From an uncultured delta proteobacterium (GTDB taxonomy: Bacteria > Desulfobacterota > RBG-13-43-22): 64,000 nt of DNA. Positions 10,961 through 62,301 of this stretch are shown here, piece after piece (within the stretch, counting starts at the first letter, position 1; each line of letters begins with the position of its first letter). A program made the position numbers and the translations under genes. The stretch is taken from the NCBI GenBank assembly GCA_963716045.1, contig CAVQSS010000025.1, positions 772 through 64,771 of the forward strand, in the 5' to 3' direction. The notes under the pieces are model-generated. The model was not told where the DNA came from. It saw only the letters and a program-made list of their open reading frames with translations, and made no database searches.

Positions 10961-11025
10961 AAAATTCCCTTCATCTACCCCCTCAATTGTTTTTTTTCTC
11001 GGGCATTGCCGACAGGAGACACTCC

Positions 11026-11908: not shown

Positions 11909-11916
11909 GAGGAAAC

Positions 11917-44853: not shown

Positions 44854-46728
44854 CTAAAGAGGTAACCCCAAGCCCTTCCGCTTTTCCAGAATGTGATTGG
44901 TAATCAACGCGGCGGCCTTAATGGGGTCCGGTTCCACGGCGAAGCAGGCCCCGAAGACGTCGTTAAGCCCTTTCGTGGCTAGTTCGGTGACATTTTTACT
45001 CCCTAAGATGGGAGGCATGACCCCGAGGTGGGTGAAGATCCCGCTGGCCATGACATAGAAGGCGATCGTCGCCGCCTTTTCGGAATACCACTCCGGGGCG
45101 GAACCGGCCAGGGGCAGTTGGTCGATGTCCACTCCGAGGGCCTTGGCCAGGGCGCAGGCGATGACCAGGATCCGCGAGTTGTCCACGCAGGAGCCCACAT
45201 GGAGCGAGGGCGGAATCCCCAGGGCGCCGCAGATTTCCTTCAGGCCCGGTCCGGCCAGTTCCTTAGCTTCAGGCACCTGGAGCCCGGCCTTGCCGGCGGC
45301 CACGTTGACGCAGCCGGTGGTCAGGACCAGGATATCGTTGGCGATCAGACGCTTGATCAATTCCACATGGCCGTAGTCCTGTTTGATCTTGGGATTGTTG
45401 CAGCCCACCACCCCCACGGCGCCCTTGATCTTGCCGGCCTTGATGGCCTCGATCAGCGGCGTAAGCGTCCCGCCCAGGGCGCCAACGATGGCCTCTACCG
45501 AAAAGCCGGTCATGGTCTTGACCGGCTGAACCGGGATATTGACCTTCTCCTTGATCCGCCGGCTGAAATTTTCGATGGACTCCCGGACGATTCGGTAGGC
45601 CTGTTCTTTGGCGTTCTCGGGATTGAATTCCACGTGTTCCATGAAGGGGAATTTCGCCTTGTCGGAGGTGGAATACATCCGGGTATGATAACACTGGGCC
45701 ACTTGTCCCAGGGAGGGCATGATGCACTGGTAGTCGACCACCATAGACTCGACCGCCCCGGTGACCAGGGTCAGTTCGGTCATGAGATGGTTGCCGGCCA
45801 TGGGGATCTTACGGCGCATCATCAGCTCGTTCCCCGTACAGCAGAGGCCGGCGATATTGATGCCCTGGGCCCCCTTGGACTTGGCCAGGGCGATCATCTC
45901 CGGATCGTCGGCCGCCAGGCAGATCATCTCGGAGACGACGGGGCTGTGGCCGTGGACCAGGATGTTGACCCGGTCTTCCTTGAGTACCCCCAGGTTCACC
46001 TCGGACATTCCCGGCTGGGGGGTGCCGAAGATGATATCCGACACCTCGGTGCCGATCATGGCCCCGCCGTAGCCGTCGGAAAGGCTGTTGCGGACCGCCT
46101 GCAAAAGCAGAGAGACCCAGTCATTGTCCACGCCCATGTGGGTCCGGTGCATCATCTCCGAGGTCTCCCGGTCAATTCCCCGGGGCAGGACCCGGAGTTT
46201 TTTCCATAGATCGAGGCGCTGCTGCGGGGCCCGGCCGGTGAGAGTGATCTGGTCTTTCTTCATCCCGTAGTCTTCCATCATGGCCTCGGCCAGGTCCAGG
46301 GCGATGGCCGCGGTCTCCCGATTGTCCGTCGGGACACCGTACTCCAAGGCCAGGCGTTTCATTTTTTCCGGGTCCTTGATTTCATAACCCGGGGCCCGGC
46401 CCTGGCCGATCTTATGTAACACCTCCACCAGGTCGCGCCCGTGGTCGGAATGGGAGGCCGCCCCGGCGGCGATCATCCGGGACAGGTTGCGGGCCACGAT
46501 AATATCGGCATCGGCGCCGCAAACGCCCTGCTGCGGGCCTTCCCCGAAGGGATCGATCCGGCAGGGGCCCATGACGCAGTTGCGGCAGGAGAGCCCCAGT
46601 TCGCAATAGCCGCAGGGGGGCTGCTGTTTCAAATAGCGGTCCCAGACTGTCTCGACGTTGTCCTCGACCGCCTTCTTCAGCATAAGCTGGGCATCTTTAC
46701 AGATGGAAAGATCTTGATAGTCGCGCAT
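44854..46728 (-). CDS. cooS: Anaerobic Ni-Fe carbon monoxide dehydrogenase catalytic subunit
   Basis: 624 aa. N-terminal cluster motif CGYCELGLSCRNCVMGPCRI. Length and body match the CooS/HCP superfamily. Confidence 0.9.
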   Translation of the reverse strand: MRDYQDLSICKDAQLMLKKAVEDNVETVWDRYLKQQPPCGYCELGLSCRNCVMGPCRIDPFGEGPQQGVCGADADIIVARNLSRMIAAGAASHSDHGRDLVEVLHKIGQGRAPGYEIKDPEKMKRLALEYGVPTDNRETAAIALDLAEAMMEDYGMKKDQITLTGRAPQQRLDLWKKLRVLPRGIDRETSEMMHRTHMGVDNDWVSLLLQAVRNSLSDGYGGAMIGTEVSDIIFGTPQPGMSEVNLGVLKEDRVNILVHGHSPVVSEMICLAADDPEMIALAKSKGAQGINIAGLCCTGNELMMRRKIPMAGNHLMTELTLVTGAVESMVVDYQCIMPSLGQVAQCYHTRMYSTSDKAKFPFMEHVEFNPENAKEQAYRIVRESIENFSRRIKEKVNIPVQPVKTMTGFSVEAIVGALGGTLTPLIEAIKAGKIKGAVGVVGCNNPKIKQDYGHVELIKRLIANDILVLTTGCVNVAAGKAGLQVPEAKELAGPGLKEICGALGIPPSLHVGSCVDNSRILVIACALAKALGVDIDQLPLAGSAPEWYSEKAATIAFYVMASGIFTHLGVMPPILGSKNVTELATKGLNDVFGACFAVEPDPIKAAALITNHILEKRKGLGLPL

Positions 46729-46731
46729 GGC

Positions 46732-47325
46732 TTATCTCCTCCTTAATTGATCCAGCGAATAGCGATAACGGGTCAAGGTATCAAAAGAATTCGCGGCCCT
46801 GGCTTTTTCCCGGATCCCCAGGTAGACCAGGGAAGCCATCTCCTCCGTCTCCCGATCCATGACCCGGTTGGGTTCCTCAAAAAGCAGGGCGCCGGATTTA
46901 CAGACCTCCACGCAGGCCGGCCTTTTTCCTTCACGCTGACGGGCGGCACACTGGTCGCACTTGTGGGCCGCTTCTTTATGGCTGGGATAGGTATGATACC
47001 GGATCACGCCAAAGGGGCAGGCCATGGCGCACATGCCGCAGTTGATGCAGCGGTCGGCATTGATCATCACGGCCCGGGCCTTATCCTCACGGAAGATGGC
47101 CTTGGTCAGGCAGGCCATCTCGCAGGGGGCCGGGTCGCAGTGCCGGCACTTGTTGGGAAAAGGCTCCTTTTGTTGGGACAGGCCGATGTGGATCCGGGGC
47201 TTGGACAGAACCGCCTCATAGGGCGCCGCGTAGAGGGACTGGCTCAGCGAGTGGGCCACCGCGCAGGCCACGCGGCACTGTAGGCAGCCGACGCAACGCT
47301 CGGGCCTGACTACCACCGTTTTCAT
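46732..47325 (-). CDS. cooF: CooF-like polyferredoxin (4x[4Fe-4S])
   Basis: ATG 47325 after AGGAGG. CVGCLQCRVAC, CRHCDPAPC, CINCGMCAMACP, CDQC...C. Confidence 0.85.
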   Translation of the reverse strand: MKTVVVRPERCVGCLQCRVACAVAHSLSQSLYAAPYEAVLSKPRIHIGLSQQKEPFPNKCRHCDPAPCEMACLTKAIFREDKARAVMINADRCINCGMCAMACPFGVIRYHTYPSHKEAAHKCDQCAARQREGKRPACVEVCKSGALLFEEPNRVMDRETEEMASLVYLGIREKARAANSFDTLTRYRYSLDQLRRR

Positions 47326-47343
47326 AGGGACCTCCTTTTGGGA

Positions 47344-47513
47344 TAAACTCGAAATACGAAACACGAAATCCGAAACAAATTCAAATGACCAAAATTCAAA
47401 TCACTGAAACGGCGTCCTTTCCTTGACCGGTGCTGGAATCCTTGCATGTTTCGATCATTTGGATTTTGAATATTGTTTTTTGTTTCGGATTTCGTGCTTC
47501 GAATTTCGGATTT
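47344..47513. repeat. Family-1 palindromic element, copy B (complete)
   Basis: Left arm CTCGAAATACGAAACACGAAATCCGAAACAAATTCAAATGA. Inverted right arm TCATTTGGATTTTGAATATTG...TGTTTCGGATTTCGTGCTTCGAATTTCGGATTT. Fills the cooF-flavoprotein spacer. Confidence 0.85.
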
Positions 47514-47525
47514 AACCCATGTTTT

Positions 47526-48749
47526 TTAGAATAGGTTCTTTAACAAATCATATAGGGAGGCTTCTCCGCTGACGATCGCTTCCGGCATGCCGGGAGATAA
47601 AGGTTTGCCGCGGCGGATCAGGTTCACCACCGGCCCGGCTCCCTCCGGGGCATTATAAAACATCATCCCGACGGGGATGTTGTCGCGCATGGCCAGCATC
47701 CGGAACTGATTTTTACCGGGAGTCTGCCGCTCGTGAAAGGTGACCCCTTCCGCGGTTTTCAAAAGCCCGGCGTTGATGAGATGGGAACGAGGCGTTTTCA
47801 GGCTGTTCAGGCCGATACTGCCCGGATAGGAAGCGGGGATACCGGCCAGGTTCAGACCCGCAAAGTATCCCTGTTCCACCGCCACCGGCCAAACAGCGTT
47901 GATCCAGGACCGCCCTCGGGTCACGTCCAGGGCCTGGCAGCAGTCCCCGGCGGTATAAATGTCCGCTTCCGAGGTTTCCAGAAATTCATTGGCCAGGATA
48001 CCGGCATCGACAGCCAAACCGGCGCTTCGGGCCAGCTCCAGCCGGGGGATGACCCCTTTGCCTACCACCAGGACATCGCTGCGGATCTCCTTCCCGGACG
48101 TTAACACGGCCAGAAGCTGTTGGTCCTCGGAGTTGATTTCGGAAATATCGTCACTTCGGTTCAGGACCACGCCCAGAGATTGGAGATCCTTTTCCACCCA
48201 GACCGCCGCCCGTTCGTTCATGACCATGGACAGCAGGTGCGGGGAGGAGACGACCATTTCCACCTCCAGTCCTCGGTCCTTCAACCCATAGGCCGTCTTG
48301 AGGCCCACAAAACCGCCGCCGGCTACGATTCCTTTCCCGGTGGCCAAGGTTTCGATCTTCAGGGCGTCTTCCAAAAAACGCAAGGTATGGGCCCGGTTTT
48401 CGGCCCGGCAGTATTCGGGCTGGACGGCGCCGGCGCCGACGGAGATCAGCAGTTTATCGTAGGAGAGGGTTTGACCGGAAGCACAGGCTATTGATTTATT
48501 TCGCGGGTCGATCTGCGAGACCCGCTCCCCGAGAAGCCAGGTCACGTTTTTCGGGTAGCGGTTGGTCTCCCGGATGGTCAGGAAATCCTGGTGGACTTCA
48601 CGGCCGAGGTACTGGGTAAGCAGGCAGCGGCAGTAGGGTTGCCGGTTTTCCTCGGAGATCGCCGTGATCTCGGCTTCCGGGGCAAACCGAAGAATTGTTT
48701 CCAAGGCCGAAAGGCCGGCGGCACTCAGACCAACGATCACTAACTTCAT
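47526..48749 (-). CDS. FAD/NAD(P)-dependent pyridine nucleotide-disulfide oxidoreductase (CODH-associated type)
   Basis: ATG 48749 after GAGGGAGG. MKLVIVGLSAAGLSA and GGGFVGLKTA dinucleotide motifs. Confidence 0.8.
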   Translation of the reverse strand: MKLVIVGLSAAGLSALETILRFAPEAEITAISEENRQPYCRCLLTQYLGREVHQDFLTIRETNRYPKNVTWLLGERVSQIDPRNKSIACASGQTLSYDKLLISVGAGAVQPEYCRAENRAHTLRFLEDALKIETLATGKGIVAGGGFVGLKTAYGLKDRGLEVEMVVSSPHLLSMVMNERAAVWVEKDLQSLGVVLNRSDDISEINSEDQQLLAVLTSGKEIRSDVLVVGKGVIPRLELARSAGLAVDAGILANEFLETSEADIYTAGDCCQALDVTRGRSWINAVWPVAVEQGYFAGLNLAGIPASYPGSIGLNSLKTPRSHLINAGLLKTAEGVTFHERQTPGKNQFRMLAMRDNIPVGMMFYNAPEGAGPVVNLIRRGKPLSPGMPEAIVSGEASLYDLLKNLF

Positions 48750-48995
48750 TCCGCCCTCCCTCATGGGGATTTGTTTGCCCGGACTGGATTGGTCTCCACT
48801 GAAGAAACCAAACAGCCGGTTCCCGTTGAAACCATCCCAATTTGATATTAAACCCATTTGAATTTCAAGAAAAAAATCGCCTCACCTGGATATTTTCGGA
48901 TTGGAAACAGCCCGACATCCTGATCTCCCCCTCCGCGATAAGTGCAACGAGGATTTGTCTGTAGCTTTTTATCGGCGCGGTTTATAATCTCCGGA

Positions 48996-50019: not shown

Positions 50020-51735
50020 TTATTCGTTCATGGCGTACTCCCCGTTGAGAGGGAGGACAACCCCATCCCAAACCCGCCGGTACTGGGCCTCATCTCCGGC
50101 AGGCCGGATCAGCATGATCTCCCGGCAGAGGTCCCGCTGTGCATCCCGGGTTCCGGGCAGCCCGTAGATCTGCAGAGCGAACCGCGCGAAATCCCGCACC
50201 ATAAAATCGAAGATCTGGCTGAGAATGTCCGGGTCCAGGTGCTCAAGCTGCGCCTGCTCCAAAATAAGCTGGCCGTAGACCACGATGGAGAACATCTCTC
50301 CCAAGGGAAGCGAGAAGACGGGGTCCAGGTCTTGGATCTTGTCCGGCCCGGCCTTTTCCAGCAGCTCCCGGAAGATCTCGGTCTGGCGGATGAAACGGCC
50401 TACGTTGGGGAGATCCCGGAAGGCTTCGAATATCGGCCGGTAGTCGTGAAACCGGACCGCGCCCAGACCCTTGGTCGGCCCCTGGTTGAACAGGAAGCCG
50501 TCGTCGTTCAGGGAAAAGTCGGGGCGCACCGGGGCATATTCCGCGGGGCTGAAAAAATAGTTTTTCATGAACTTGCGGATAAGCTGGACATTCACGTGAA
50601 CGGTGCCTTCGAGCTTCGACGGGCCCCGGACGTCGGCGGACGCCATGTGGAAGTAAGTATCCTTTTCAAAACCCTTGGCGGCAATCACCTCCCAGAGCAG
50701 GTTGACCACCTCTTCGGACTGTAGCGTGACCTTCATCTTGCTGGTGGGATTGTAGAGCAGGTAGCGGCGGTCATTTTCCCCGGCTTGCCGGAAATAGTCG
50801 GTGGCCCGGCGATGATAGGCCTTCATGGCCACCAGCCGCAGCCAGGCGTCCATGAAGTTCCGGCGCACATGGGGCATATCGCTGACGCGAACCCCGTAAA
50901 GGATGCGGTTGGCGGCATGGGTAATAGCCTCGTAAAAGCAGTGTTCTGCCATGCCGATGGAGGCCGGGCCGATATTGAACTTGCCGATGTTCACCGTATT
51001 CAGCGCCGAATCCCAAGCGTGGGAGCCGCGGGAAAGGATGTCTTCCTCGGTGACGGGATAGTCATGCAGGGCGAAGTTGGAGACGTACTCCTGGTGGGAG
51101 ATGACGTTTTTTTTCAACTCATAGGCCTTATGGCGGTAGTTGGTGACGAAGAAGACAAAATCGTCCGTTCCGTCCTTGACCTTGCCGAGGGTTGAAACCA
51201 TCTCCGCCTCGTTGCCGTTGCCGATGTAATATTTCTCACCGTTGGCCTTCCAGGTGCCTTCGCCCTGGAGGGTCAGGGTGGTTTCGGTGGCATAGATATC
51301 CGCCCCATGGGCCCGTTCGGAAAGGCCGAAGGCGAAGATGGCGCCTTCCCGGAGGAGCCGGGCCGCCTTCCGCTTGGCCTTATCGTTGGGGCTCATCCAG
51401 ATGGGGCCCAGCCCCAGAATGGTTACCTGGAAACAATACCAGTAGCCCAGGCCGTAGAAAGCCAACAATTCGCTGTACTCGTTGTTGCGCGCCGTGTCCC
51501 AACGGCAGTCCGGGTCGCCGCCGGCATATTCCTTGGGCGTAAGCAGTTTGGCGAAGATTTGCTCCCGCCCGATGAAGTCGACGAATTCCCGGTACCAGAC
51601 TTTTTTATTGTAATCGTCGAGGAGTCGGACCTTCCCCATGTTCTCGAAAAAGGTGATGGTCTTTTCCATGAGGGCTCGGGAGCCGGCATCGGTCATCAGA
51701 CTGGTATATTTCTTCGGTTGAATAAAAAAATTCAT
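50020..51735 (-). CDS. Acyl-CoA dehydrogenase family protein (long form, 571 aa)
   Basis: AFGLSERAHGADIY, KYYIGNGNEA, NIGKFNIGPASIGMAEHCFYEAITHA. Confidence 0.75.
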   Translation of the reverse strand: MNFFIQPKKYTSLMTDAGSRALMEKTITFFENMGKVRLLDDYNKKVWYREFVDFIGREQIFAKLLTPKEYAGGDPDCRWDTARNNEYSELLAFYGLGYWYCFQVTILGLGPIWMSPNDKAKRKAARLLREGAIFAFGLSERAHGADIYATETTLTLQGEGTWKANGEKYYIGNGNEAEMVSTLGKVKDGTDDFVFFVTNYRHKAYELKKNVISHQEYVSNFALHDYPVTEEDILSRGSHAWDSALNTVNIGKFNIGPASIGMAEHCFYEAITHAANRILYGVRVSDMPHVRRNFMDAWLRLVAMKAYHRRATDYFRQAGENDRRYLLYNPTSKMKVTLQSEEVVNLLWEVIAAKGFEKDTYFHMASADVRGPSKLEGTVHVNVQLIRKFMKNYFFSPAEYAPVRPDFSLNDDGFLFNQGPTKGLGAVRFHDYRPIFEAFRDLPNVGRFIRQTEIFRELLEKAGPDKIQDLDPVFSLPLGEMFSIVVYGQLILEQAQLEHLDPDILSQIFDFMVRDFARFALQIYGLPGTRDAQRDLCREIMLIRPAGDEAQYRRVWDGVVLPLNGEYAMNE

Positions 51736-51958
51736 AGGATTACTCCTCCATTCTAAAGATTTGCGTCAGGTCACAAAATTAACATGCCGACAGGCCAACT
51801 TGCAACCTGTAAGTGGATTGCCTAAAGTCTGGGAAAACCGACCGGGATCTCCGCTCGTTAGGCAGAGACTTGAAATCTGCCGCATCCCTTTGGACTTGCG
51901 GTGGGGACTATGCTAGGATAGCGTTCTTAAATCCTGAAAACTCAAAGGAAGTGCCGAT

Positions 51959-54811
51959 ATGAAGCTGCTGCGATTGAACATGGAAACGGGAAAGATTGAG
52001 TTTGAGCCCCTCCGCGAGGACTGGCTGCCCATCGGCGGCAGCGCTTTGCTGGCCCGCATCATGAACCGGGAAGTTCCGCCGGCGGCGGATCCCCTGGGTC
52101 CCAAGAATGCCTTCATCATAGCCGTCGGCCCGTTGGCCGGCACCGGGGCCCCTCAGCTCGGGCGCATCTCCGTGGGGGCCAAGAGTCCCCTGACCCTGGG
52201 AATAAAAGAGGCCAACGCCGGAGGCCCGGCCGGGCAATTCCTCGACCGGTTGGGGATTCGCGCTATTATTGTTCAGGGCACCCCGCCGGAAGACCGTCTG
52301 ACTTGTTTGTTGATTTCAGGGGACCGGGTGGAGTTGATCCCAGCGGAGGAATATCGGGGACAAAAAAATTATGAACTGGCAGGACGACTGAGGGAAAAAT
52401 ACGGGGAGAAGGCGGCGGTCATCTCTACCGGTTCGGCCGGGGAGCGGAAATACCGGGGGGCCTCGGTTTCTTTTACCGATCTGTTCGGGGACCCTTCACG
52501 GAATGCCGCCCGGGGGGGGCTCGGGGCCGTGATGGGGTCCAAGGGACTCAAGGCTATTATCATCGACCCCGGAAAAACCGGCCCGGTGGAGACGGCCGAT
52601 CCGGAGGCCTTTCGCCGGCTGGTGAAATCCTGGGTCAATACCCTTAAGCACGATGTGAGTTGCAGCCTTTATTCCCGCTTCGGCACGCCTTTCGCCGTTT
52701 CCAATTCAGCCAGCCAGGGGACCCTGCCGACCCTGAACTACCGTTCGGGTCGGCCGGAAGACTTTATCGCCGTGAGCGGCAACAGCATCCAAAAGATCCT
52801 TTTTGAACGGGGCGGCCGGATGCACGGCTGCATGCCCGGATGCGTGGTCCGCTGTTCCATCATCTATCCCGATAAAGAGGGGCAGCGGATCTGCTCGGCT
52901 TATGAATATGAAACCATCGCCCTGCTGGGAACCAATCTGGGCATCACCGATCCGGATGCCATTGCCCGGCTCAAGTTTCTCTGTGATGATCTGGGGGTCG
53001 ATGCCATCGAAACCGGCAGCGCCTTGGGCCTGGCAGCCGAGGCCGGAAAAATGACCTTCGGCGATTGGTCCTCGGCCGCGCGGTTGCTGGAAGAAATGGA
53101 ACGGGAAACGCCGTTGGGCCGGGCCCTGGGGAACGGGGTGGTGGCCACTGCCCAATACCTGGGTGTCAGCCGGGTGCCCGCTTATAAAGGACAGGCTCTG
53201 CCCGGCCATGATCCCCGTTCGACCAAGGGAACCGGGGTGACCTATTACACCAGCCCCATGGGCGCGGATCACACGGCGGGGCTGACCTACCGGATTCCCC
53301 TAAGCCGAACGAAACAGGCGGAGAATTCGCTGAAGGCCCAGATCCAGGCCGCCGTCTGCGACGCTTTCGGCTATTGCCTGAATGCTGTTCCCGGCGGTCG
53401 GGCTTCCTTGAATGTCTTCCTGGCCGAGCTGTTGAACGCTCGCTACGGGGGCCGGTGGACTGCTGAAGATGTCCTGAAGATCGGCAAGCAGACCCTGCGG
53501 GATCAGCTCGCTTTCAATGAAAAGGCCGAATTCAGCCAGGGGGATACCGGGGAGGCCGCCTTTATTCGGCAGGAGGCGATTGCCCCCACTCACCAGGTTT
53601 TTGATGTGGAGGAGGCCGAGATCAAGCATTTCTGGGCCGGGCTGGATTCCTTTCAGGAGAAGGAAAAGGTCTGGGAGATCCGTATCCCGCCCTTGCCGGA
53701 AACGCTGTTCGGCGCCGGGGTGTCCGGAAAGATGGGGGAAGCCCTGAAGCGTCTTCAGGTCAGGAAATTGTTTATCGTTACCGATCCGGTCATGTTTTCC
53801 CTGGGGCGGGCGGAGGAGATCCGCCGGATCGTGGAGCGCAGCGGTTTGCAAACGGTTATTTTTTCGGAAGTGGAACCCGATCCCCCCATCGAACTCATCG
53901 AACGGGCCGGGCGACTGTATACCGATGCGGGCTGTGACGGCATTCTCGGCCTGGGCGGCGGCAGCTCGATGGATACGGCCAAGGCCCTCGGGTTGCGGGT
54001 GACTCACGCCGGGGACTTGAGGGAATTCGAAGGCCTGGTGGGCGGAGGCGGCAAAATCAAGCCGATTCTCCCGCCGATCATCTGCCTGCCGACCACCTCC
54101 GGGACGGGCAGCGAGGTCAACCCCTGCGCGGTGATCACCGATACGGAGCGGGACCTGAAGCTGGTTTTGATGAGCAATCACCTGATCCCCAAAATGGCGG
54201 TCATCGATCCCCTTTTCTGCCGGACCATGCCGCGCGGCCTGACCATCGCCTCCGGTATCGACGCCCTGGCCCACTGCATCGAGGGCTATGTTTCCCTGGC
54301 CACCCCTTACCATCCCTATTTCGAGTCCATGGCGGTTTACGGGGTAAAACTGATCGGGCGCAGCCTGCCCCGGGCCTACCAAGACGGGGAGGATATCGCC
54401 GCCCGGACCGACATGTGCATGGCGGCCCTCTGCGGCGGCCTGGCCTTCCTGAAAGGCCTGGGGATCGGCCATGCCCTTACCCACGTGCTGGGCGCCCACT
54501 ACCATCTGCCCCACGGCCGGGCGGCCATTTATGGGCTCCTGTGCTTTGTCAGAGCCAACCGGGAAACCTGTAAGGACCCCTTTACCGATCTGGCCCAAAT
54601 GCTGAATCGCTCGAACGATCTCGAGGCAAGCCTGCTGGCCTTCTACGGGAAGCTGGATATCCCCATCAGCCTGAGAGCCGAGGGAATTCCCAAAGAGGAC
54701 CTGGAGAAAATCGCCTTTTTCACTTCCCGCGACGCGGTGAATATGGCCACCGACCCCACCACCCCCAGTCGGCGGAAAATTTTGGAGCTGCTGGAAGCGA
54801 TGTACGATTGA
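51959..54811 (+). CDS. Fusion protein: aldehyde:ferredoxin oxidoreductase (AOR family) + iron-containing alcohol dehydrogenase
   Basis: 950 aa.
- AOR part (to ~53650): GGSALLARIM, cluster motif HGCMPGCVVRC, FLCDDLGVDAIETG, PMGADHTAG, CDAFGYC.
- Fe-ADH part (from ~53660): LFGAGVSGKMGEALKRLQVRKLFIVTD, GLGGGSSMDTAKA, HxxxH region GIGHALTHVLGAHYHLPHG.
- No stop, start codon or convincing RBS at the junction. Confidence 0.85.
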   Translation: MKLLRLNMETGKIEFEPLREDWLPIGGSALLARIMNREVPPAADPLGPKNAFIIAVGPLAGTGAPQLGRISVGAKSPLTLGIKEANAGGPAGQFLDRLGIRAIIVQGTPPEDRLTCLLISGDRVELIPAEEYRGQKNYELAGRLREKYGEKAAVISTGSAGERKYRGASVSFTDLFGDPSRNAARGGLGAVMGSKGLKAIIIDPGKTGPVETADPEAFRRLVKSWVNTLKHDVSCSLYSRFGTPFAVSNSASQGTLPTLNYRSGRPEDFIAVSGNSIQKILFERGGRMHGCMPGCVVRCSIIYPDKEGQRICSAYEYETIALLGTNLGITDPDAIARLKFLCDDLGVDAIETGSALGLAAEAGKMTFGDWSSAARLLEEMERETPLGRALGNGVVATAQYLGVSRVPAYKGQALPGHDPRSTKGTGVTYYTSPMGADHTAGLTYRIPLSRTKQAENSLKAQIQAAVCDAFGYCLNAVPGGRASLNVFLAELLNARYGGRWTAEDVLKIGKQTLRDQLAFNEKAEFSQGDTGEAAFIRQEAIAPTHQVFDVEEAEIKHFWAGLDSFQEKEKVWEIRIPPLPETLFGAGVSGKMGEALKRLQVRKLFIVTDPVMFSLGRAEEIRRIVERSGLQTVIFSEVEPDPPIELIERAGRLYTDAGCDGILGLGGGSSMDTAKALGLRVTHAGDLREFEGLVGGGGKIKPILPPIICLPTTSGTGSEVNPCAVITDTERDLKLVLMSNHLIPKMAVIDPLFCRTMPRGLTIASGIDALAHCIEGYVSLATPYHPYFESMAVYGVKLIGRSLPRAYQDGEDIAARTDMCMAALCGGLAFLKGLGIGHALTHVLGAHYHLPHGRAAIYGLLCFVRANRETCKDPFTDLAQMLNRSNDLEASLLAFYGKLDIPISLRAEGIPKEDLEKIAFFTSRDAVNMATDPTTPSRRKILELLEAMYD

Positions 54812-54848
54812 ACATGAGATTCCGGCTATAATAAGTATTGAGTTTAAA

Positions 54849-55100
54849 ACGAAAGGCCGCATTGGTTTTGGTCAATTCCTCATAGACCAGACATTCGCCG
54901 AAGGTCCCCAGATCCAATCCCCCATATTCCTCCGGGATGGAAAGGCCGAACAGCCCTAATTCCCGCATCTTTTGGACGACCCCTTCCGGGATGTGATCCT
55001 CGTCCTCCACTTGCTGGGAAAGGGGTCCCAGGTCCTGATTTACGAAGCGGCGGATCGTTTCCTGCATCAGGCGCAGGCTTTCCGGGATCTCATAGTCCAC
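54849..55100 (-). pseudogene. 5' remnant (~84 aa) of an acyl-CoA dehydrogenase gene
   Basis: MDYEIPESLRLMQETIRRFVNQDLGPLSQQVEDEDHIPEGVVQKMRELGLFGLSIPEEYGGLDLG... is an ACAD N-domain. Homology stops at ~54849 and the ORF then runs as junk into the AOR-ADH 3' end. Confidence 0.7.
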
Positions 55101-55130
55101 ATCGCTCTCCTTCCTTCAAAACTTCCCAAA

Positions 55131-55379
55131 CTGTCACCTTGAGCCCTCGCCGGACTGTCACCCTGAACCCTTCGCCTGTCACCCTGAGCCCTTGGCCTGT
55201 CACCCTGAGCCCTTCGCCTGTCACCCTGAGCGAAGCGAAGGGTCTGGGTCTTTGGCTCAGGATAAACTCCGCGAAGGTCTCGTCTTCCGGTCCAGGGTAA
55301 ATTCCCCGAAGGATCTGGGGATCTGTTGAAAAAACGAGATTCTTCGTCCCGCGCTATCGCGGGACTCAGAATGACAAGC
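55131..55379. repeat. Family-2 composite repeat with five tandem ~21-nt units
   Basis: CTGTCACCYTGARCCCTTSGC x5 (55131-55238), then GAGCGAAGCGAAGGGTCT, GGCTCAGGATAAACTCCGCGAAGGTCTCGTCTTCC, and an inverted terminal arm ...GAGATTCTTCGTCCC...CTCAGAATGACAAG. Confidence 0.85.
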
Positions 55380-55447
55380 ACTCTCTGGTGGACTTTTTGC
55401 GAGTCTATCAAGTGTTCCCAAAGCTTGCACTAAACACCAAGCCGGGA

Positions 55448-57031
55448 TCAAGGCCGCATCCCCCGTTTTTTCGGTCCCAACTGGCTGGGCAGCAGGCGGT
55501 AGGCATTTTCAACCCATTCGCAGAGAAGGGGCCGGGTATCGCGGGGGTCGATGATCTCCTCGATTCCAAACCGTTCGGCCGTCAGGAAGGGGGAGGTGAA
55601 TTTGGACAAACGCTGCTCGATCTCTTGGCGCAAGGCCTGGGGATCTTCGGAGGCTTCAATTTGGCGGCGGTAGGCGGCCTGCACGCCTCCTTCGATAGGG
55701 AGGGATCCCCATTCCCCGGAAGGCCAGGCGTAGCGCAGGTTCAGTCGGGAGTGGTTCCCGTGGGCCGCACCGGCCACGCCGTAGACCCGCCGCAGGATGA
55801 CGGAACACCAGGGGACCGTGGCCTGGTAGACGGCGAAGATGTAGCGGGCACCGAAGCGGATGGTACCCTGTTTCTCGGCCTCCACGCCGATCATAAAACC
55901 CGGGTTGTCGACAAAATTGACCACCGGCAAATGGAACGTGTCGCAGAGATCGATAAAGCGGGTCAGTTTGTCGGCCCCCTGGGCGGTAATGGCGCCGCCG
56001 AAAAAATTGGAATCGTGGGCGAAAACCCCCACCGGACGACCGGACAGCCGCGCCAGGCCGGTGACCACCGAGCGCCCATGTTGGGCCCCGATTTCAAAAA
56101 ATGACCCCTGATCCAGGACCAGTGAGAGGATACGGCGCACCGGATAAGGACGGCGTTTGTTTTTAGGAATGATGCGGACCAGTTCCTCCTCGCGGCGGTC
56201 GGCCGGGTCGGCAGTCTCTTTGACCGGGGGAAGTTCATAAACCGAATCGGGCAGGTAGGAGAGAAAACGGCGGATGTGATCAAAGGCTTCTTCCTCGGAG
56301 CCCACCTCATTGTCCACGGCGCCGAAACCACCGGTCTGAATTTGGGACCCGCCAAGTTCCTCCTTGCCCACCTTCCGATTCAGGGCCGGTTCCACCACCG
56401 GAGGACCGGCCACAAAGAGCTGGGCCGTTTTCCGGGGCATGACCGAGAAATGGGAAAAGACCACTCGGGCCGCACCCAGGCCGGCCACCGATCCGAGGGC
56501 GGCGCTCACCACCGGTACGGTGGAAAGCAGCGCGGCCATGGTGTCCATGCCCGGGTTGTAGGGCACATAGGTGCGATCCATCTGCTCCAGAAATTTGACG
56601 CTTCCGCCTCCTCCGGTACCGTCCACCAGCCGGACTATGGGCAAACGAAGCTCCAGGGCCATCCGTTCGGCATAGGCCGCCTTCTGCCCGATGGCGGCAT
56701 CGGCTGCCCCGCCGCGGATGGTGAAGTCGTCGGCCCCCACCACCACCCGACGCCGATCGATCCGGCCGGTCCCCAGGATAAAATTGGAAGGGAATAATTG
56801 AACCAGGCGGTCGTCGTCAAAGGTAGGGATCCCGGTGATGGCCCCGGTTTCGTGGAAGCTGCCCTTATCGAGCAAATGATCGATCCGCTCCCGGACGTTC
56901 AGACGGCCGGCCGCCCTATGGCGGGCCAGGTTTTCCTCTCCCCCCATCTGGGCCGCCAGGCTTTCCCGGAGGCGCAGTTCCTCTACCTCCGGCAACCAGC
57001 CCGGGTCCAGGTCGGTTTTTTCTTTATCCAT
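55448..57031 (-). CDS. Acyl-CoA carboxyltransferase (PccB/MmdA/GcdA family)
   Basis: ATG 57031. GRLNVRERIDHLLDKGSF, RLVDGTGGGGS, FFGGAITAQGADKLTRFIDLCDTFHLPVVNFVDNPGF. Confidence 0.85.
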   Translation of the reverse strand: MDKEKTDLDPGWLPEVEELRLRESLAAQMGGEENLARHRAAGRLNVRERIDHLLDKGSFHETGAITGIPTFDDDRLVQLFPSNFILGTGRIDRRRVVVGADDFTIRGGAADAAIGQKAAYAERMALELRLPIVRLVDGTGGGGSVKFLEQMDRTYVPYNPGMDTMAALLSTVPVVSAALGSVAGLGAARVVFSHFSVMPRKTAQLFVAGPPVVEPALNRKVGKEELGGSQIQTGGFGAVDNEVGSEEEAFDHIRRFLSYLPDSVYELPPVKETADPADRREEELVRIIPKNKRRPYPVRRILSLVLDQGSFFEIGAQHGRSVVTGLARLSGRPVGVFAHDSNFFGGAITAQGADKLTRFIDLCDTFHLPVVNFVDNPGFMIGVEAEKQGTIRFGARYIFAVYQATVPWCSVILRRVYGVAGAAHGNHSRLNLRYAWPSGEWGSLPIEGGVQAAYRRQIEASEDPQALRQEIEQRLSKFTSPFLTAERFGIEEIIDPRDTRPLLCEWVENAYRLLPSQLGPKKRGMRP

Positions 57032-57181
57032 ATTGAAATCCTTAAATTCGAAACAATCCCTCTTCTCTGAGCGTCCAGTTCGTGGTCCCAATTGAGACTA
57101 ACATCGGGCCTCACCAACCATCTATTAACCACTGGAGTCTGTTTTGCCCGCGCGCGAGATCAAAGGAGGGGTAGTTATTTT

Positions 57182-57275: not shown

Positions 57276-58394
57276 TTACCGCCCCGTCTCCTGGTGATAA
57301 ACGCAATGCAATGTCTCCCCTTTCAGCAGGGCCTCGAAGCATTTGTTGCAGGAGATGCAGGTAGCCCGGTGTCGATCGCCCTGCTGCCAGTCCCGGATAA
57401 GTGCCGGTTCTTTGATCAGCGGGCGGCTGAGGGAGATCAGATCGGCTTCACCGTTCTGGATGACTTCCTCCATGAGCGCCGGCGTCCGCAATCCGCCGAC
57501 CATCATGACCGGGATCGTTACCTCCGGCTTTATTTCCCGGCACCAGGATCTGAAGTAGGCCTCGCGGTCCAGCCGGTTGACGCGGGTCTTGAATTCGGCA
57601 TTTTCGTATCCCGGACCCCTTAAACCGGAGCTGATCTCCAGGGCATCATAACCCCACTGAGCCAGGCGTTGGGCGGCTTGTTTCCCCTCACTAAATTCGA
57701 ATCCCCCAGGAAATCCGTCCTGGACCCCGATCTTTATCATTACCGGATATTCCTCCCCCACTTTCGACTGAATGGACCGGAAAATTTCATGATGGAGGCG
57801 AAGCCGGTTTTCGAGCGTACCTCCCCAGGCGTCGATCCGGCGGTTGGTGAAGGGAGATAGAAACTGGCTCAGCAGATAGGCGTGGGCCCCGTGGACCTGA
57901 ACCGCGTCCAGTCCGGCTTCTTTGGCCCGACCGGCGGCCTCGCCAAAGTCTCGAATCACTTGTTGGATTTCCGTCTCGGTGATCTCCCGATGAGGGTACT
58001 GGAAAAAAGTGTCATCCGGGACATAGGACGGGGCCAGGGCCTGCTTGCGGTGGGGGTTAAAGGCCTTGGCCGTTTCCCTGCCGGCATGAAACAACTGGAC
58101 GGCAATTTTAGTGCCGTGCTCATGGGCGGTCTCAGCCAGGTTCCGGAAACCGGGAATACAATCGTCGTCGGCCATTGAATTTTGAAAGACGGAAATCTGG
58201 CCGGAAGCGTGCACATAGGCAATACCCAAAATGATCAGGCCCACTCCGCCCTTGGCCAGTTCCTCCACCATCCGGATTTGTCCGGAGGAAACCCGGCCGT
58301 TTTTTTCGGCCATTCCATCATAGGTGGCGGACCGGACGAAGCGGTTCGGGAGGATCAGGTTTTTTATGGAATAAGGTTCAAAGAGAAGGTTCAT
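57276..58394 (-). CDS. Old-Yellow-Enzyme family NADH:flavin oxidoreductase with C-terminal Cys cluster
   Basis: ATG 58394. PNRFVRSATYDGMA, QLFHAGR, HGAHAYLLSQFLSP. C-terminal CISCNKC...C. Confidence 0.85.
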   Translation of the reverse strand: MNLLFEPYSIKNLILPNRFVRSATYDGMAEKNGRVSSGQIRMVEELAKGGVGLIILGIAYVHASGQISVFQNSMADDDCIPGFRNLAETAHEHGTKIAVQLFHAGRETAKAFNPHRKQALAPSYVPDDTFFQYPHREITETEIQQVIRDFGEAAGRAKEAGLDAVQVHGAHAYLLSQFLSPFTNRRIDAWGGTLENRLRLHHEIFRSIQSKVGEEYPVMIKIGVQDGFPGGFEFSEGKQAAQRLAQWGYDALEISSGLRGPGYENAEFKTRVNRLDREAYFRSWCREIKPEVTIPVMMVGGLRTPALMEEVIQNGEADLISLSRPLIKEPALIRDWQQGDRHRATCISCNKCFEALLKGETLHCVYHQETGR

Positions 58395-58468
58395 AGAGGC
58401 CTTTATTCTCGTACTAAACGCCCATGGTCGTCTGAGCCGCCTACGAAGCATGAAAATGGATATCCCAG

Positions 58469-58638: not shown

Positions 58639-60087
58639 TTACCTTATTCCCAATAAGTGCTCGACCTGGCTGATCTTGCCATCCAGATCGGCCTGACGGC
58701 CGATCATGATCCGCTGGGCCATGGGCGGGCCGGCCCCGTGCATGGACTCGATGAGGTAGCCCACCGCCCCGGCGCCGGCCACCAGGTTTTCGATCAGGCG
58801 CAGCACCTTCATGCGATCAACCACCCGGCTGTCCGGGGAGGCGGCCAGGTATTTTTGAATGTACGGTCCGGTGACCGGGTCCTCCAGGTCGGCGGCCGAA
58901 GGCATGGTGCCCAACAGGCCGCCGGCAATGTCCGTGGCCAGCCGGGCCAGCTCAAAGGGAAAACGGGTGACATTCAGCTTGCAGACGTTGGCCAGCAGCA
59001 GATTCACCTGGTAATTCCCGGCCGGGGTCTTCTCCCCGGTGGCGGAACAGGCCAGCCCGCAGGCATAGATCGTTTCGTTGAGATGGATCATCTCCACGAT
59101 TTTGTCCTTAATGTGGCCGGCCTCGGCCACGCCGTTCATCCGGGCGATCAAGGCCGCGGCCCCGATGAGGACGTCGCCCACTCCGACCTTGCAGCCGCCG
59201 TAGCTCTGCCGGTGGTAGGAGGCGAACCGCTCGACCAGGATCCCGGAGAAATCAACTTCCCCGTTCAGGAAAAGACGTTCGTTGGGGATAAACACATCCT
59301 CAAAAACGGTCATCACTTCCTGTCCGCCATAGGTGGGGTTGCCCTTGTCCAGTGGAAAGGCTTCCAGTTTCCGGGTGTCGCTGCTCTGCCGGCCGTAGAT
59401 GTGCCTGACGCCCTCGGCATTGGTGGGAACCGCGCAGCAGACCGCCCAGTCCTCTTCCCCCTTCCTCATGGTCAGGGTGGGCATGACCAGTATCTCGTGG
59501 GAGTTGAGCATGCCGGTCTGATGAAGCTTGGCCCCGCTGATCACCACGCCCCCCGGCCGGCGTTCCTTGACCCGCAGATACAGGTCGGGGTCCTTTTGGT
59601 CTTTGGGGCGCTTCCCTCGATCCCCTTTGGGATCGGTCATGGCCCCGTCCACCAGGAGGTCCTGCTGCTGTATCCATTTCCAGTATTCCCTGAACCGCTG
59701 GTGATAGGAAGTCTCCTGTTTCCGGTCGCAGTCAAAGGTGGTGCTGAAGATGGCATTGGCCGCGTCCAGCCCGACGCAGCGCTGGAAGCAGCACGCGGTC
59801 TGGACGCCGCAATAGCGCTGCATGTTGACCTTGTTGATCAGATCCTCCCGGCTTTGATGAAGGTGGGTGAAGCGATTGACCGGTTCATTCGTCAGGTTCG
59901 ATTCCACGCAGAACAAATCCCGGGTTTCCGGGTTGCAGGCGCAGTCATAGGTGAAGGCCACCGCCTGCCGGGAGGGTTGGACCAGACCGTGTTCAGGCAG
60001 GTCGCCGGTCTTTTGTCCCAGGATGTGGGCCTCTAAGCCATAGGATTCAATCGAATCGAGGTATTCCGCTCCTGTTTTCAAGGCCAT
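58639..60087 (-). CDS. 4-hydroxybutyryl-CoA dehydratase / vinylacetyl-CoA isomerase (AbfD) family protein
   Basis: 482 aa. MALKTGAEYLDSI start. TACCFQRCVG cluster motif. HpaB/AbfD-like body. Confidence 0.8.
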   Translation of the reverse strand: MALKTGAEYLDSIESYGLEAHILGQKTGDLPEHGLVQPSRQAVAFTYDCACNPETRDLFCVESNLTNEPVNRFTHLHQSREDLINKVNMQRYCGVQTACCFQRCVGLDAANAIFSTTFDCDRKQETSYHQRFREYWKWIQQQDLLVDGAMTDPKGDRGKRPKDQKDPDLYLRVKERRPGGVVISGAKLHQTGMLNSHEILVMPTLTMRKGEEDWAVCCAVPTNAEGVRHIYGRQSSDTRKLEAFPLDKGNPTYGGQEVMTVFEDVFIPNERLFLNGEVDFSGILVERFASYHRQSYGGCKVGVGDVLIGAAALIARMNGVAEAGHIKDKIVEMIHLNETIYACGLACSATGEKTPAGNYQVNLLLANVCKLNVTRFPFELARLATDIAGGLLGTMPSAADLEDPVTGPYIQKYLAASPDSRVVDRMKVLRLIENLVAGAGAVGYLIESMHGAGPPMAQRIMIGRQADLDGKISQVEHLLGIR

Positions 60088-60516: not shown

Positions 60517-62301
60517 CTAAAACCCCCCATCCGGCATTTCCACCACTTCCCGGCCGGCCCGCAGGCAGGTCTCCATCCGGGCCAGAGTCAAAGGCAGGGT
60601 TGTTCCGGTGAAGTAAGTGGCTTGAAGTACCTTGCCGGAGAGAAAATCATTGCCGCTCCCGGCTTCTATCCGTTCATGAGCGATGACCGCCAGATCCAGC
60701 AGCCGCCAGACCATAGTGATATCGCCGAAGCACAGCAGTGCCGGGTAGGTATAGGACGCCCACTGCAGGGGGTCCGATTTCATTTTTTCAGACAGGGTCC
60801 GGGCCATGGTTTCCAATCGGTCGACGGCCTCGGACAGGGCCCGGATTTCCGGCCCCAACCGGGGTTGATCGGCCTGTTTTCGGCAGAAGGTCTGAATCTC
60901 GGCCAGGTACGAATTAAAGAGTGCCCCGCCGTTCAGCCGCATTTTTCTTCCCAGCAGGTCGATGGACTGGATGCCGTTGGTGCCTTCATAGAGGGACATG
61001 ATCTTCGAATCGCGCAGGTATTGCTCCAGGGGGTATTCCCGGCAGAACCCGTACCCGCCCAGGCACTGGATGGCCGTTTCGCAGACCTTAAAACCCATGT
61101 CCGAACAATAGGCCTTGATGATCGGAGTCAGGAAATCGACCAGGGACTGGTAGTGGTTTTTCTCTTCTCCCGGGGGCAGCTCCAGGGCCAGTTCCGACCA
61201 GAAGGCCCCGGTATAAATCATGGAACGCATCCCGTCCACCGTGGCCTTCATCCAGAGCAGCATACGCCGAACATCGGGGTGATCGATGATCGGGACATAG
61301 CCGGGTTTCCGGCCGGCCTGGTCCGAGCCCTGGATCCGCTCTTTGGCATAGGCCAGGGCGTTGAGATAGGCGGTACCGGCCAGGGTCATGCCGCTGACCC
61401 CGGTATTGATGCGAGCGGCATTCATCATCTGGAACATATGGGCCAGGCCGCTGTTGGCTTCGCCGCACAGGTAGCCAATACAGCCGTCCTGGTCCCCGAA
61501 ATTCAGCAGACAAGTGGGGGAGGCGTGGAGTCCCAGTTTCTTTTCCACCCCGCCGCAGCGCACGTCGTTGGGTTCCCCCAGGCTGCCGTCCGGATTGATC
61601 CGGATCTTAGGCACTACGAAGAGGGATATGCCCTTGACGCCCTCGGGTGCCCCCTCGATGCGGGCCAATAACAGGTGGATGATATTTTCGGCCAGATCGT
61701 GATCGCCCCAGGAAATGAAGATCTTGGAACCCTTGATCCGGTAGTGGTCTCCTTCCGGGTCGGCGCTGGTCCGGATGGCGGCCAGGTTGGAACCGGCCTG
61801 GGGCTCGGTGAGGGCCATAGTCCCGGCCCATTGCCCGCTGAACATGTTGGGGATGAAACGTTCCTTGAGTTCACGGGTCCCGAAGCTTTCGATCAGATGG
61901 GCCGCCCCGTGGGTCAGGCTGGGGGCCATGTTAAAGGCTTGGCAGGCCCCGTACATCAGGTCATTGATGACGATGCGCATCATATGGGGGAAACCCTGGC
62001 CGCCGTATTCCGGGTCCCGGGCCGCGGAGGTCCAGCCGTTTTCGCCGTAAAGCCGAAAGGCCGCTTGGAACTCGGGGGCGCAGCGGACCTCGCCGTTATC
62101 CAGGACCACCCCCCATTTTTCCCCGATCTCCTGGAGGGGAGCGATCTCCGTCCGGGCAAATTTCATGGCCTCTTTGACCAGCAGGTCCAGGGTTTCCTCG
62201 TCGAGTTCCCGGTAGCGGTCCAGCTTACAAAGGCTTCCGTAATTCAATTGATTTTTTAAAATAAAAAATAGGTCGTCTTCGTTTACTTTAAAATGAGACA
62301 T
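60517..62301 (-). CDS. Acyl-CoA dehydrogenase (long form, 594 aa)
   Basis: GGQGFP, GTMALTEPQAGSNLAAIRTSA, KIFISWGDHD. C-terminal extension domain. Confidence 0.85.
   Translation of the reverse strand: MSHFKVNEDDLFFILKNQLNYGSLCKLDRYRELDEETLDLLVKEAMKFARTEIAPLQEIGEKWGVVLDNGEVRCAPEFQAAFRLYGENGWTSAARDPEYGGQGFPHMMRIVINDLMYGACQAFNMAPSLTHGAAHLIESFGTRELKERFIPNMFSGQWAGTMALTEPQAGSNLAAIRTSADPEGDHYRIKGSKIFISWGDHDLAENIIHLLLARIEGAPEGVKGISLFVVPKIRINPDGSLGEPNDVRCGGVEKKLGLHASPTCLLNFGDQDGCIGYLCGEANSGLAHMFQMMNAARINTGVSGMTLAGTAYLNALAYAKERIQGSDQAGRKPGYVPIIDHPDVRRMLLWMKATVDGMRSMIYTGAFWSELALELPPGEEKNHYQSLVDFLTPIIKAYCSDMGFKVCETAIQCLGGYGFCREYPLEQYLRDSKIMSLYEGTNGIQSIDLLGRKMRLNGGALFNSYLAEIQTFCRKQADQPRLGPEIRALSEAVDRLETMARTLSEKMKSDPLQWASYTYPALLCFGDITMVWRLLDLAVIAHERIEAGSGNDFLSGKVLQATYFTGTTLPLTLARMETCLRAGREVVEMPDGGF

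Follow-up and report, generated by a model that had tools for sequence, protein, structure and literature searches.

A conserved natural fusion of an aldehyde:ferredoxin oxidoreductase with an iron-containing alcohol dehydrogenase in uncultured Syntrophaceae and Smithellaceae, and its predicted bifunctional role

Free acids, aldehydes and alcohols are known to be interconverted by two separate enzymes, an aldehyde:ferredoxin oxidoreductase (AOR) and an alcohol dehydrogenase (ADH), in what is termed the AOR-ADH pathway (PMC10816221). During syntrophic ethanol oxidation by Pelobacter, an NAD-dependent ADH is combined with a tungsten-dependent AOR (PMC4275255). According to a further paper, no enzymes other than AORs are known to reduce carboxylic acids that have not been activated (PMC9295118). 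Here we analyse a 64,000-nucleotide stretch of a contig from an uncultured delta proteobacterium (CAVQSS010000025.1; the whole stretch is called the window), in which a single gene encodes an AOR followed by an iron-containing ADH (Fe-ADH). The predicted reactions, cofactors, and ferredoxin and NAD(P)H partners are the same as those of the separate-enzyme systems of P. furiosus, Thermoanaerobacter sp. X514, Clostridium autoethanogenum, Pelobacter and Desulfovibrio, whereas the window protein is one polypeptide and its AOR belongs to a shorter subfamily of ~570 aa with a C-x3-C-x3-C cluster motif. An earlier note on this DNA had pointed out that the two activities are consecutive steps, as indeed they are in the known pathway (PMC10816221), and had been aware of no characterised protein of this architecture; we likewise found no published description of a natural AOR-ADH fusion in open-access papers or preprints, an absence that is not proof. 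No such fusion is mentioned in a 2025 review of tungsten enzymes, which proposes screening syntrophs for natural combinations of AOR and ADH (PMC12096430). The chemistry is that of the known AOR-ADH pathway, here in single-polypeptide form.

Three other described systems bear comparison with the window protein. As in the spirosome-forming AdhE, an aldehyde-producing enzyme is joined to a C-terminal Fe-ADH with a free aldehyde as the intermediate, and the ADH halves align. However, the N-terminal partner is a pterin/Fe-S AOR and not a CoA-acylating aldehyde dehydrogenase, and the predicted substrates are a free acid and ferredoxin, whereas those of AdhE are acyl-CoA and NADH. The NCBIfam AdhE model matches its ADH part only (positions 476-759; 204 bits against a cut-off of 951), and because no Aldedh domain is matched in Pfam, the fusion is not a member of AdhE, for all that it is AdhE-like in logic. 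The clostridial 4-hydroxybutyrate pathway, made up of succinic semialdehyde reductase/4-hydroxybutyrate dehydrogenase, a 4-hydroxybutyrate CoA-transferase (AbfT) and 4-hydroxybutyryl-CoA dehydratase (AbfD), offers a possible second likeness, since a bona fide AbfD gene lies near the Fe-ADH-family gene in the window and in some of the related loci. In the window, by contrast, the aldehyde would come from free succinate via AOR and not from succinyl-CoA or gamma-aminobutyrate, there is no AbfT nearby, and the ADH half scores below the cut-off for 4-hydroxybutyrate dehydrogenase. Finally, AOR catalytic subunits are functionally tied to NAD(H) in AorABC of Aromatoleum aromaticum and in the electron-bifurcating AOR (8c0z, 9mqx). 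In those complexes Fe-S and FAD subunits pass electrons to NAD, whereas the window protein contains no electron-transfer module, no extra redox domain joining the two sites was found in it, and a separate ADH site would act on the aldehyde.

The fusion gene runs from an ATG at 51959 to a TGA at 54809-54811 as one uninterrupted open reading frame (ORF) of 950 aa with zero in-frame stops (Table 1). Scores for all four Pfam domains were far beyond chance: AFOR_N (E 6e-58, 196 bits against a cut-off of 30), AFOR_C (E 2e-48, 166 bits against a cut-off of 27), Fe-ADH (E 1.5e-46, 158 bits) and ADH_Fe_C (E 8e-38, 130 bits), the last two being above their gathering scores. Residues 3-534 align to P. 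furiosus AOR (PfAOR; 1aor), and residues 577-950 to Fe-ADHs, namely 8zrl, methanol dehydrogenase, FucO, DhaT and the ADH part of AdhE. These results agree with the claim of the earlier note that one ORF of 950 aa carries first an AOR and then an Fe-ADH. A scan for promoters and terminators over 51650-55500 gave nothing above shuffle expectation, and no convincing sigma-70 promoter was detected upstream of the gene.

The residues expected of a working AOR were found to be retained. Invariance was counted in an alignment of 73 full-length fusion sequences, and in all 73 we observed the residues that align with the pterin/Mg contacts Arg76, Asn93 and Arg182 of PfAOR (Arg69, Asn86 and Arg181), with PfAOR Glu313 (E316-Y317-E318) and with PfAOR His448 (His438). 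The two pterin D-x-x-G-x-(D/C) motifs (DDLGVD at 343-348 and DAFGYC at 468-473), located by the same alignment, and the cluster ligands Cys291, Cys295, Cys299 and Cys473 (PfAOR Cys288, 291, 295 and 494) were equally invariant (73/73). The cofactor-binding residues that the earlier note had wanted examined by proper alignment are all present among those compared with PfAOR, and its claim of a complete AOR with D-x-x-G-x-D/C motifs is upheld. Its reading of the cluster motif as C-x2-C-x3-C, on the other hand, was mistaken, since alignment with PfAOR and formaldehyde:ferredoxin oxidoreductase (FOR) gives a spacing of C-x3-C-x3-C in HGCMPGCVVRC, where one residue more than in FOR and AOR separates the first Cys from the second. 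This spacing was present in 79 of the 95 representatives of the short (~570 aa) AOR subfamily and is a trait of that subfamily. By its domains, modelled fold, cluster cysteines, pterin motifs and active-site Glu and His, the N-terminal half can be assigned to the AOR family.

The AFOR_C profile match stops at position 334 of 385, so that the last ~50 positions are unmatched, and truncation of the AOR half was considered; it was ruled out by equally short standalone relatives and by the completeness of the fold. Of the unfused relatives these standalone AORs are the nearest; with 557-580 aa and 40-45% identity, they cover residues 1 to ~560 when aligned and terminate at the fusion junction. One of them, P0127, terminates there with ...FWSFLDES, and in another, the 54%-identical P0123 (L088, 228-1934), TAG TAG stands exactly at the junction-equivalent position, on a contig that stops 12 nt later. 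Compared with the full-length AORs 1aor, 9g7j, 1b25 and 8c0z, the AOR half of an AlphaFold2 model gave target-normalised template-modelling (TM) scores of 0.80-0.83. The AOR half is complete because standalone relatives of ~570 aa terminate at the junction and its fold is whole, and as they terminate exactly there, the connector comprises only ~15 residues.

The ADH half is also complete, with the GGGSxxD motif and His-rich metal site that had been noted in it from the start. The metal ligands Asp768, His772, His838 and His852 and the GGGS-x-x-D motif (GGGS 666-669, Asp672) are invariant (73/73), and TTSGTGSE is kept across the family, with Ser714 being S in 71/73 and A in 2/73. Asp609 is conserved in 72/73; we take the equivalent position in FucO-type enzymes to favour NAD over NADP, and this conservation suggests that the ADH half prefers NAD(H). 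Target-normalised TM scores of the modelled ADH half were ~0.89 against FucO, methanol dehydrogenase and DhaT, and its domains, fold, and nucleotide and metal motifs place it among the group III iron-containing alcohol dehydrogenases. Neither half of the fusion protein reached the cut-off of any NCBIfam equivalog, and its substrate is therefore not assignable by homology.

A trivial explanation for such a gene would be that an indel introduced during sequencing or assembly has merged two adjacent genes. The relative P0123, with its real stop at the junction position, is in keeping with this explanation, but the same frame and length recur in >120 clusters and 72 genomes produced by different assemblers and technologies, and the junction has no indel and a conserved connector, so that an artefact is effectively refuted. 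A search of 5.8 billion proteins gave >120 clusters (90% identity level) from ENA, JGI, NCBI and Logan assemblies; in every one the protein has a length of ~950 aa and contains the four domains, and identities are 75-93%. When one genome per GTDB species was scanned, 138 relatives were confirmed, of which 80 loci were fetched, with the fusion gene at 56-92% identity. Clustering at 50% identity leaves a single representative, hence this is one coherent family. No indel (0 among the 73 full-length sequences, from independent assemblies) occurs within residues 501-869, which include the junction, and the connector follows the motif W-E-[IV]-R-[IM]-P-P-x-P. The first in-frame ATG past the junction is Met592 and the first alternative start is a TTG at Leu579, neither of them suitably spaced behind the purine-rich QEKEK codons. 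The junction sequence quoted in the earlier note is matched, and it has, as was stated there, no stop, start codon or spacing for a ribosome-binding site. The constant frame and length, the lack of junction indels and the conserved connector show that the fusion is genuine and that selection keeps the two halves joined.

Carriers are nearly all metagenome-assembled genomes (MAGs) labelled as Syntrophaceae, Smithellaceae/Smithella, Syntrophales, Syntrophobacteraceae, Desulfobacterales or Desulfomonilaceae, with a few labelled Chloroflexota or Dehalococcoidales. Copies in public databases are named generically as "iron-containing alcohol dehydrogenase" or "aldehyde:ferredoxin oxidoreductase". 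In three loci from Smithellaceae and Syntrophaceae MAGs (L030, L035 and L038) two tandem paralogous fusion genes lie side by side, the extra copy having the connector HEIRIPPSP in place of the usual WEIRIPPMP.

The search for AOR plus Fe-ADH domain architectures suggested in the earlier note yielded, besides the large family of the window protein, several others with the same domain pair and an independent origin. AOR-to-ADH fusions occur in the P0125 family (Desulfobacterota, 977 aa) and in P0129 (949 aa), and ADH-to-AOR fusions in the Bacillota family P0205/P0227 (at least 65 clusters; Oscillospiraceae, Anaerovoracaceae) and in P0239; in the ADH-to-AOR proteins the cluster motif is the canonical C-x2-C-x3-C and AFOR_C is full-length. 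These families share 28-39% identity with the window halves, and their AOR halves are all closer to standalone AORs than to those of the other fusions: that of P0125 has 64% identity to a standalone AOR and 39% to the window AOR half, while that of P0205 has 62% identity to a standalone Desulfosporosinus AOR. Junction sequences of different fusion families are unrelated. A single common origin of all these fusions was examined and ruled out by the identity matrix and the unrelated junctions. AOR and Fe-ADH have thus been fused on at least four occasions, in either domain order and in two phyla, and the architecture is neither rare nor unique to the window, but that of a large family of repeated origin. 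At least four independent fusions constitute strong "Rosetta-stone" evidence for a joint action of the two activities. No ADH gene was found 3' of the standalone relative P0127, and there is therefore no evidence that the fusion was formed from an adjacent gene pair.

The contexts of these other families differ in what they reveal. In the first of two P0125 contexts, the order is acyl-CoA dehydrogenase (ACAD), two short-chain dehydrogenases/reductases (SDR), fusion, AMP-forming acyl-CoA ligase and enoyl-CoA hydratase (ECH), and in the second an MMPL transporter gene and an alkyl-sulfatase-type gene stand on either side of the fusion; both contexts can be read as alcohol to acid to acyl-CoA to beta-oxidation. 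Bacillota ADH-to-AOR genes are solitary, beside a DNA ligase, an SDR or a prophage, and their context is uninformative. At L082 (11028-12968, P0125 family), an alkyl-sulfatase-type gene (Lactamase_B plus Alkyl_sulf_dimr) is directly 3' of the fusion and MMPL, DUF1302 and DUF1329 genes are 5' of it, neighbours that suggest oxidation of primary alcohols released by the sulfatase.

Our results suggest that the window gene encodes a bifunctional oxidoreductase with two active sites, in which acid, aldehyde and alcohol are converted within one enzyme, and we regard this as likely. The N-terminal ~565 residues would hold a bis-pyranopterin tungsten (or molybdenum) site and one [4Fe-4S] cluster, interconverting a free carboxylic acid and its aldehyde with ferredoxin, and the C-terminal ~370 residues, a group III iron ADH, would interconvert the same aldehyde and a primary alcohol with NAD(H). 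The aldehyde would be the sole thing common to both sites. Fusion would fix a 1:1 stoichiometry and keep the sites close, so that a reactive, toxic and thermodynamically awkward aldehyde may be held very low at steady state in either direction; channelling of the aldehyde by the fusion is thus a reasonable inference. The aldehyde/alcohol couple lies near -200 mV. An E0' of -520 to -560 mV is given for acid/aldehyde couples (PMC10816221), and in either direction one step would be uphill and pulled by the other. This would be the logic of AdhE applied to non-activated acids, the pterin enzyme replacing the CoA-acylating aldehyde dehydrogenase and making a thioester or ATP unnecessary. In the oxidative direction, NADH and reduced ferredoxin would be formed with two electrons each, the mix consumed by the confurcating hydrogenases and formate dehydrogenases of syntrophs. 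In syntrophic Thermodesulfobacteriota, the enzyme probably joins free acids and alcohols to CoA-ester (crotonyl-CoA/beta-oxidation) metabolism.

Gene context links the fusion to CoA-ester metabolism. Neighbours were clustered without prior assumptions and counted in species-level genome loci (n=72, mean flanks 15 kb). A long ACAD was near the fusion in 21 of the 72 loci (directly adjacent on the same strand in 16), thiolase in 18 (0), AbfD in 15 (12), SDR in 10 (7), a Na+-decarboxylase beta subunit in 6 (5), SucC in 5 (0) and SdhA in 5 (1); succinyl-CoA synthetase (SucCD) and SdhAB flank the fusion in 4-5 loci. The AbfD of the window matches 1u8v at 608 bits, and its Cys/His cluster ligands are conserved. 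A functional link between AbfD and the fusion is suggested because AbfD, normally low-copy, recurs near it in five or more distinct arrangements that span the full 56-92% identity range, including a Dehalococcoidales-labelled MAG.

Two further sets of loci have a recurring arrangement. In L020, L024, L026, L053, L056 and L060, the fusion is found on one strand amid SucCD, carboxyltransferase and Na+-translocating decarboxylase beta subunit genes, together with ACAD, ECH and succinate dehydrogenase/fumarate reductase with Rieske and cytochrome b genes. In L022, L023, L027, L029, L030, L033, L037 and L055, a thiamine diphosphate (ThDP) enzyme resembling acetolactate synthase (NF005760, 633 bits) and a PIG3-type quinone oxidoreductase are found behind the fusion/ACAD genes; an enzyme of this kind, as a ThDP decarboxylase or lyase, might supply the fusion with aldehyde.

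Table 1. Coordinates of the fusion gene, its parts and neighbouring genes in the window
Feature	Position	Strand	Basis
Whole fusion gene, 950 codons + TGA	51959..54811	+	ORF call, domains, relatives
Shine-Dalgarno-like AAGGAAG, 7 nt 5' of fusion ATG	51945..51951	+	Sequence inspection
AOR N-terminal domain (AFOR_N), residues 2-203; predicted cofactor contacts Arg69, Asn86, Arg181	51962..52567	+	Pfam, 1aor alignment, invariance 73/73
AOR domains 2 + 3, residues 223 to ~565; natural C-terminus ~565	52625..53653	+	Pfam to 530, standalone relatives, TM, invariance
[4Fe-4S] motif CMPGCVVRC: Cys291, Cys295, Cys299; fourth ligand Cys473	52829..52855	+	PfAOR alignment, invariance
Connector, residues ~566-580, QEKEKVWEIRIPPLPE; fixed length, conserved sequence, predicted local distance difference test (pLDDT) <50 at 568-575	53654..53698	+	73-sequence alignment, AlphaFold2
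Fe-ADH nucleotide-binding domain, residues 581-751; Asp609, GGGS 666-669, Asp672, TTSGTGSE	53699..54211	+	Pfam, 8zrl alignment, invariance
Fe-ADH C-terminal helical domain, residues 762-949; metal ligands Asp768, His772, His838, His852	54242..54805	+	Pfam, invariance
ACAD-like gene, divergent from fusion gene	50020-51735	-	ORF/Pfam
Carboxyltransferase, convergent with fusion gene	55448-57091	-	ORF/Pfam
Old yellow enzyme (OYE)-type flavin oxidoreductase (flavoprotein), adjoins AbfD	57276-58451	-	Pfam
4-Hydroxybutyryl-CoA dehydratase/vinylacetyl-CoA isomerase (AbfD) orthologue; context, outside fusion gene	58639..60087	-	1u8v match
Long (~600 aa) ACAD; commonest conserved neighbour of fusion	60517..62301	-	Pfam

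Several observations weigh against a bifunctional enzyme of this kind or against its proposed place in metabolism. For the fusion family we infer catalysis, metal identity, channelling, direction and substrate from sequence, and tungsten is not distinguishable from molybdenum in this way. No member of the short subfamily, with its C-x3-C-x3-C spacing, is among the solved AOR structures matched. The AlphaFold2 model has a mean pLDDT of 84 and both halves fold confidently, but its predicted TM score is 0.63, pLDDT drops to <50 in the connector (only at residues 568-575) and there is no confident inter-domain arrangement. No solved structure among those matched to the model spans both halves, and a dedicated aldehyde tunnel between the two sites is hypothetical and unproven. 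The highest NCBIfam match of the ADH half is to ErcA (NF041833; 258 bits against a cut-off of 550) and the second-best to 4-hydroxybutyrate dehydrogenase (NF058672; 246.6 bits against an equivalog cut-off of 500), both below the respective thresholds. The fusion gene of the window is a solitary transcription unit, with no tungstate-uptake or pterin-synthesis genes in the window, and a search of the window found no ferredoxin-partner gene near the fusion. Across the family the context is heterogeneous: ~80% of loci lack AbfD within ~15 kb and many lack any informative neighbour, AbfT is not conserved near the fusion in the 72 loci, and an AMP-forming ligase is near it in only 4.

What the bifunctional enzyme would do in the cell may be read in more than one way. 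It is possible, and we tentatively place this reading first, that the fusion serves as a general entry for alcohols, with simple or fatty primary alcohols (ethanol, propanol, butanol and longer) being oxidised via the aldehyde to the acid, which is then activated for beta-oxidation, with no special link to a C4 hydroxy acid. Both P0125 contexts fit this reading, as do the commonest neighbours in the window family (ACADs, thiolases, ECH and 3-hydroxyacyl-CoA dehydrogenase), and Pelobacter and Desulfovibrio oxidise ethanol with a pair of NAD-ADH and tungsten-AOR; conversion of propanol to propionate would also fit the methylmalonyl-CoA pathway genes of the group-B loci. However, beta-oxidation genes are highly multicopy in these organisms, hence their proximity says little, and the recurring, multi-arrangement adjacency of AbfD is left unexplained.

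Another possible role is that of a C4-specific module, in which succinate and 4-hydroxybutyrate would be interconverted without CoA or ATP, replacing succinyl-CoA reductase and 4-hydroxybutyrate dehydrogenase upstream of AbfD. AbfD occurs in the window and in 15/72 loci, adjacent on the same strand in 12, at fusion identities of 56-92%; SucCD and SdhAB flank the fusion in the group-B loci; and 4-hydroxybutyrate dehydrogenase is the second-best NCBIfam match of the ADH half. The clostridial AbfD pathway itself includes a 4-hydroxybutyrate dehydrogenase of the Fe-ADH type. Against these points, the 4-hydroxybutyrate dehydrogenase score is far under the equivalog cut-off, there is no conserved CoA-transferase, ~80% of loci are without AbfD within ~15 kb, and much of the AbfD synteny is within Smithellaceae and is thus partly inherited rather than independent. 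Taken on its own the C4 module is somewhat doubtful, and we consider it and general alcohol oxidation to be about equally likely. The set of succinate, succinic semialdehyde and 4-hydroxybutyrate is the leading, unproven, guess at the substrates. Its most specific form, in which the fusion acts as a CoA- and ATP-independent succinate reductase (succinate to succinic semialdehyde to 4-hydroxybutyrate with reduced ferredoxin and NADH) feeding AbfD and hence crotonyl-CoA, is more doubtful still.

A reductive role would have excess reduced ferredoxin and NADH spent on reducing accumulated fatty acids to alcohols, as in acetogens and Thermoanaerobacter. In syntrophs, electrons normally leave the cell as H2 or formate, at low partial pressures that make acid reduction unfavourable, and the contexts of the fusion look catabolic. 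Although this pathway is established with separate enzymes (PMC10816221, PMC12096430) and its chemistry is reversible, we regard an electron sink as unlikely, and as less likely than either of the preceding roles. An ErcA-like regulatory or NAD-sensing ADH half without catalytic activity is very improbable since, for all that ErcA is its top NCBIfam match (258 bits), the score is far under the cut-off of 550, the NAD- and metal-binding residues are all invariant, and independent fusions of AORs with different Fe-ADH lineages point to catalytic coupling.

Some other features of the window were recorded. About 60 bp from the fusion stop lies an ACAD remnant (54870-55100, minus strand) comprising the first ~77 codons (Acyl-CoA_dh_N positions 2-71 of 113), and between this remnant and the carboxyltransferase gene is a 21-bp tandem repeat (55131-55231; 4.7 copies, 87% matches, consensus CTGTCACCCTGAGCCCTTCGC). 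In a 93%-identical relative (L083), the equivalent downstream region contains HepT/CopG toxin-antitoxin genes and another ACAD fragment. The remnant in the window and the toxin-antitoxin genes and ACAD fragment in L083 indicate that the region 3' of the fusion is rearrangement-prone. Upstream of the fusion (44854-48857, minus strand) are genes for a hybrid-cluster (prismane) protein, a 4Fe-4S dicluster protein and a pyridine-nucleotide-disulfide oxidoreductase; no link of this cluster to the fusion was seen in related loci and it looks unrelated. In an 878-aa ORF at 10987-13623 (plus strand), a double hot-dog MaoC/FAS1-type dehydratase region and an AMP-forming acyl-CoA ligase occur together; this ORF is probably the "fusion at 11866" of the earlier note. 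A 1012-aa ORF at 20333-23371 (minus strand) has Hint/intein-like matches (PT-HINT, Hint_2, Intein_splicing) followed by two Tim44-like stretches, an unusual combination.

The AOR-ADH route is being engineered for the conversion of acids to alcohols, and a natural single-polypeptide version is a ready-made catalyst to test. Having arisen several times independently, it also offers, much as AdhE does, a natural experiment in the channelling of an aldehyde. Uncultured Smithellaceae and Syntrophaceae, among which the fusion is widespread, are important in the methanogenic degradation of fatty acids and hydrocarbons, and current pathway models leave the role of the fusion out. If the link to AbfD is functional, it would provide a new connection from succinate to crotonyl-CoA. 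If the fusion does act as a succinate reductase, the 4-hydroxybutyrate route would have a variant that had not been recognised before, in which the succinate/methylmalonyl-CoA branch of Syntrophia (propionate and hydrocarbon metabolism) would be joined to crotonyl-CoA and succinate oxidation, the energetically hardest step, would be bypassed in Syntrophia.

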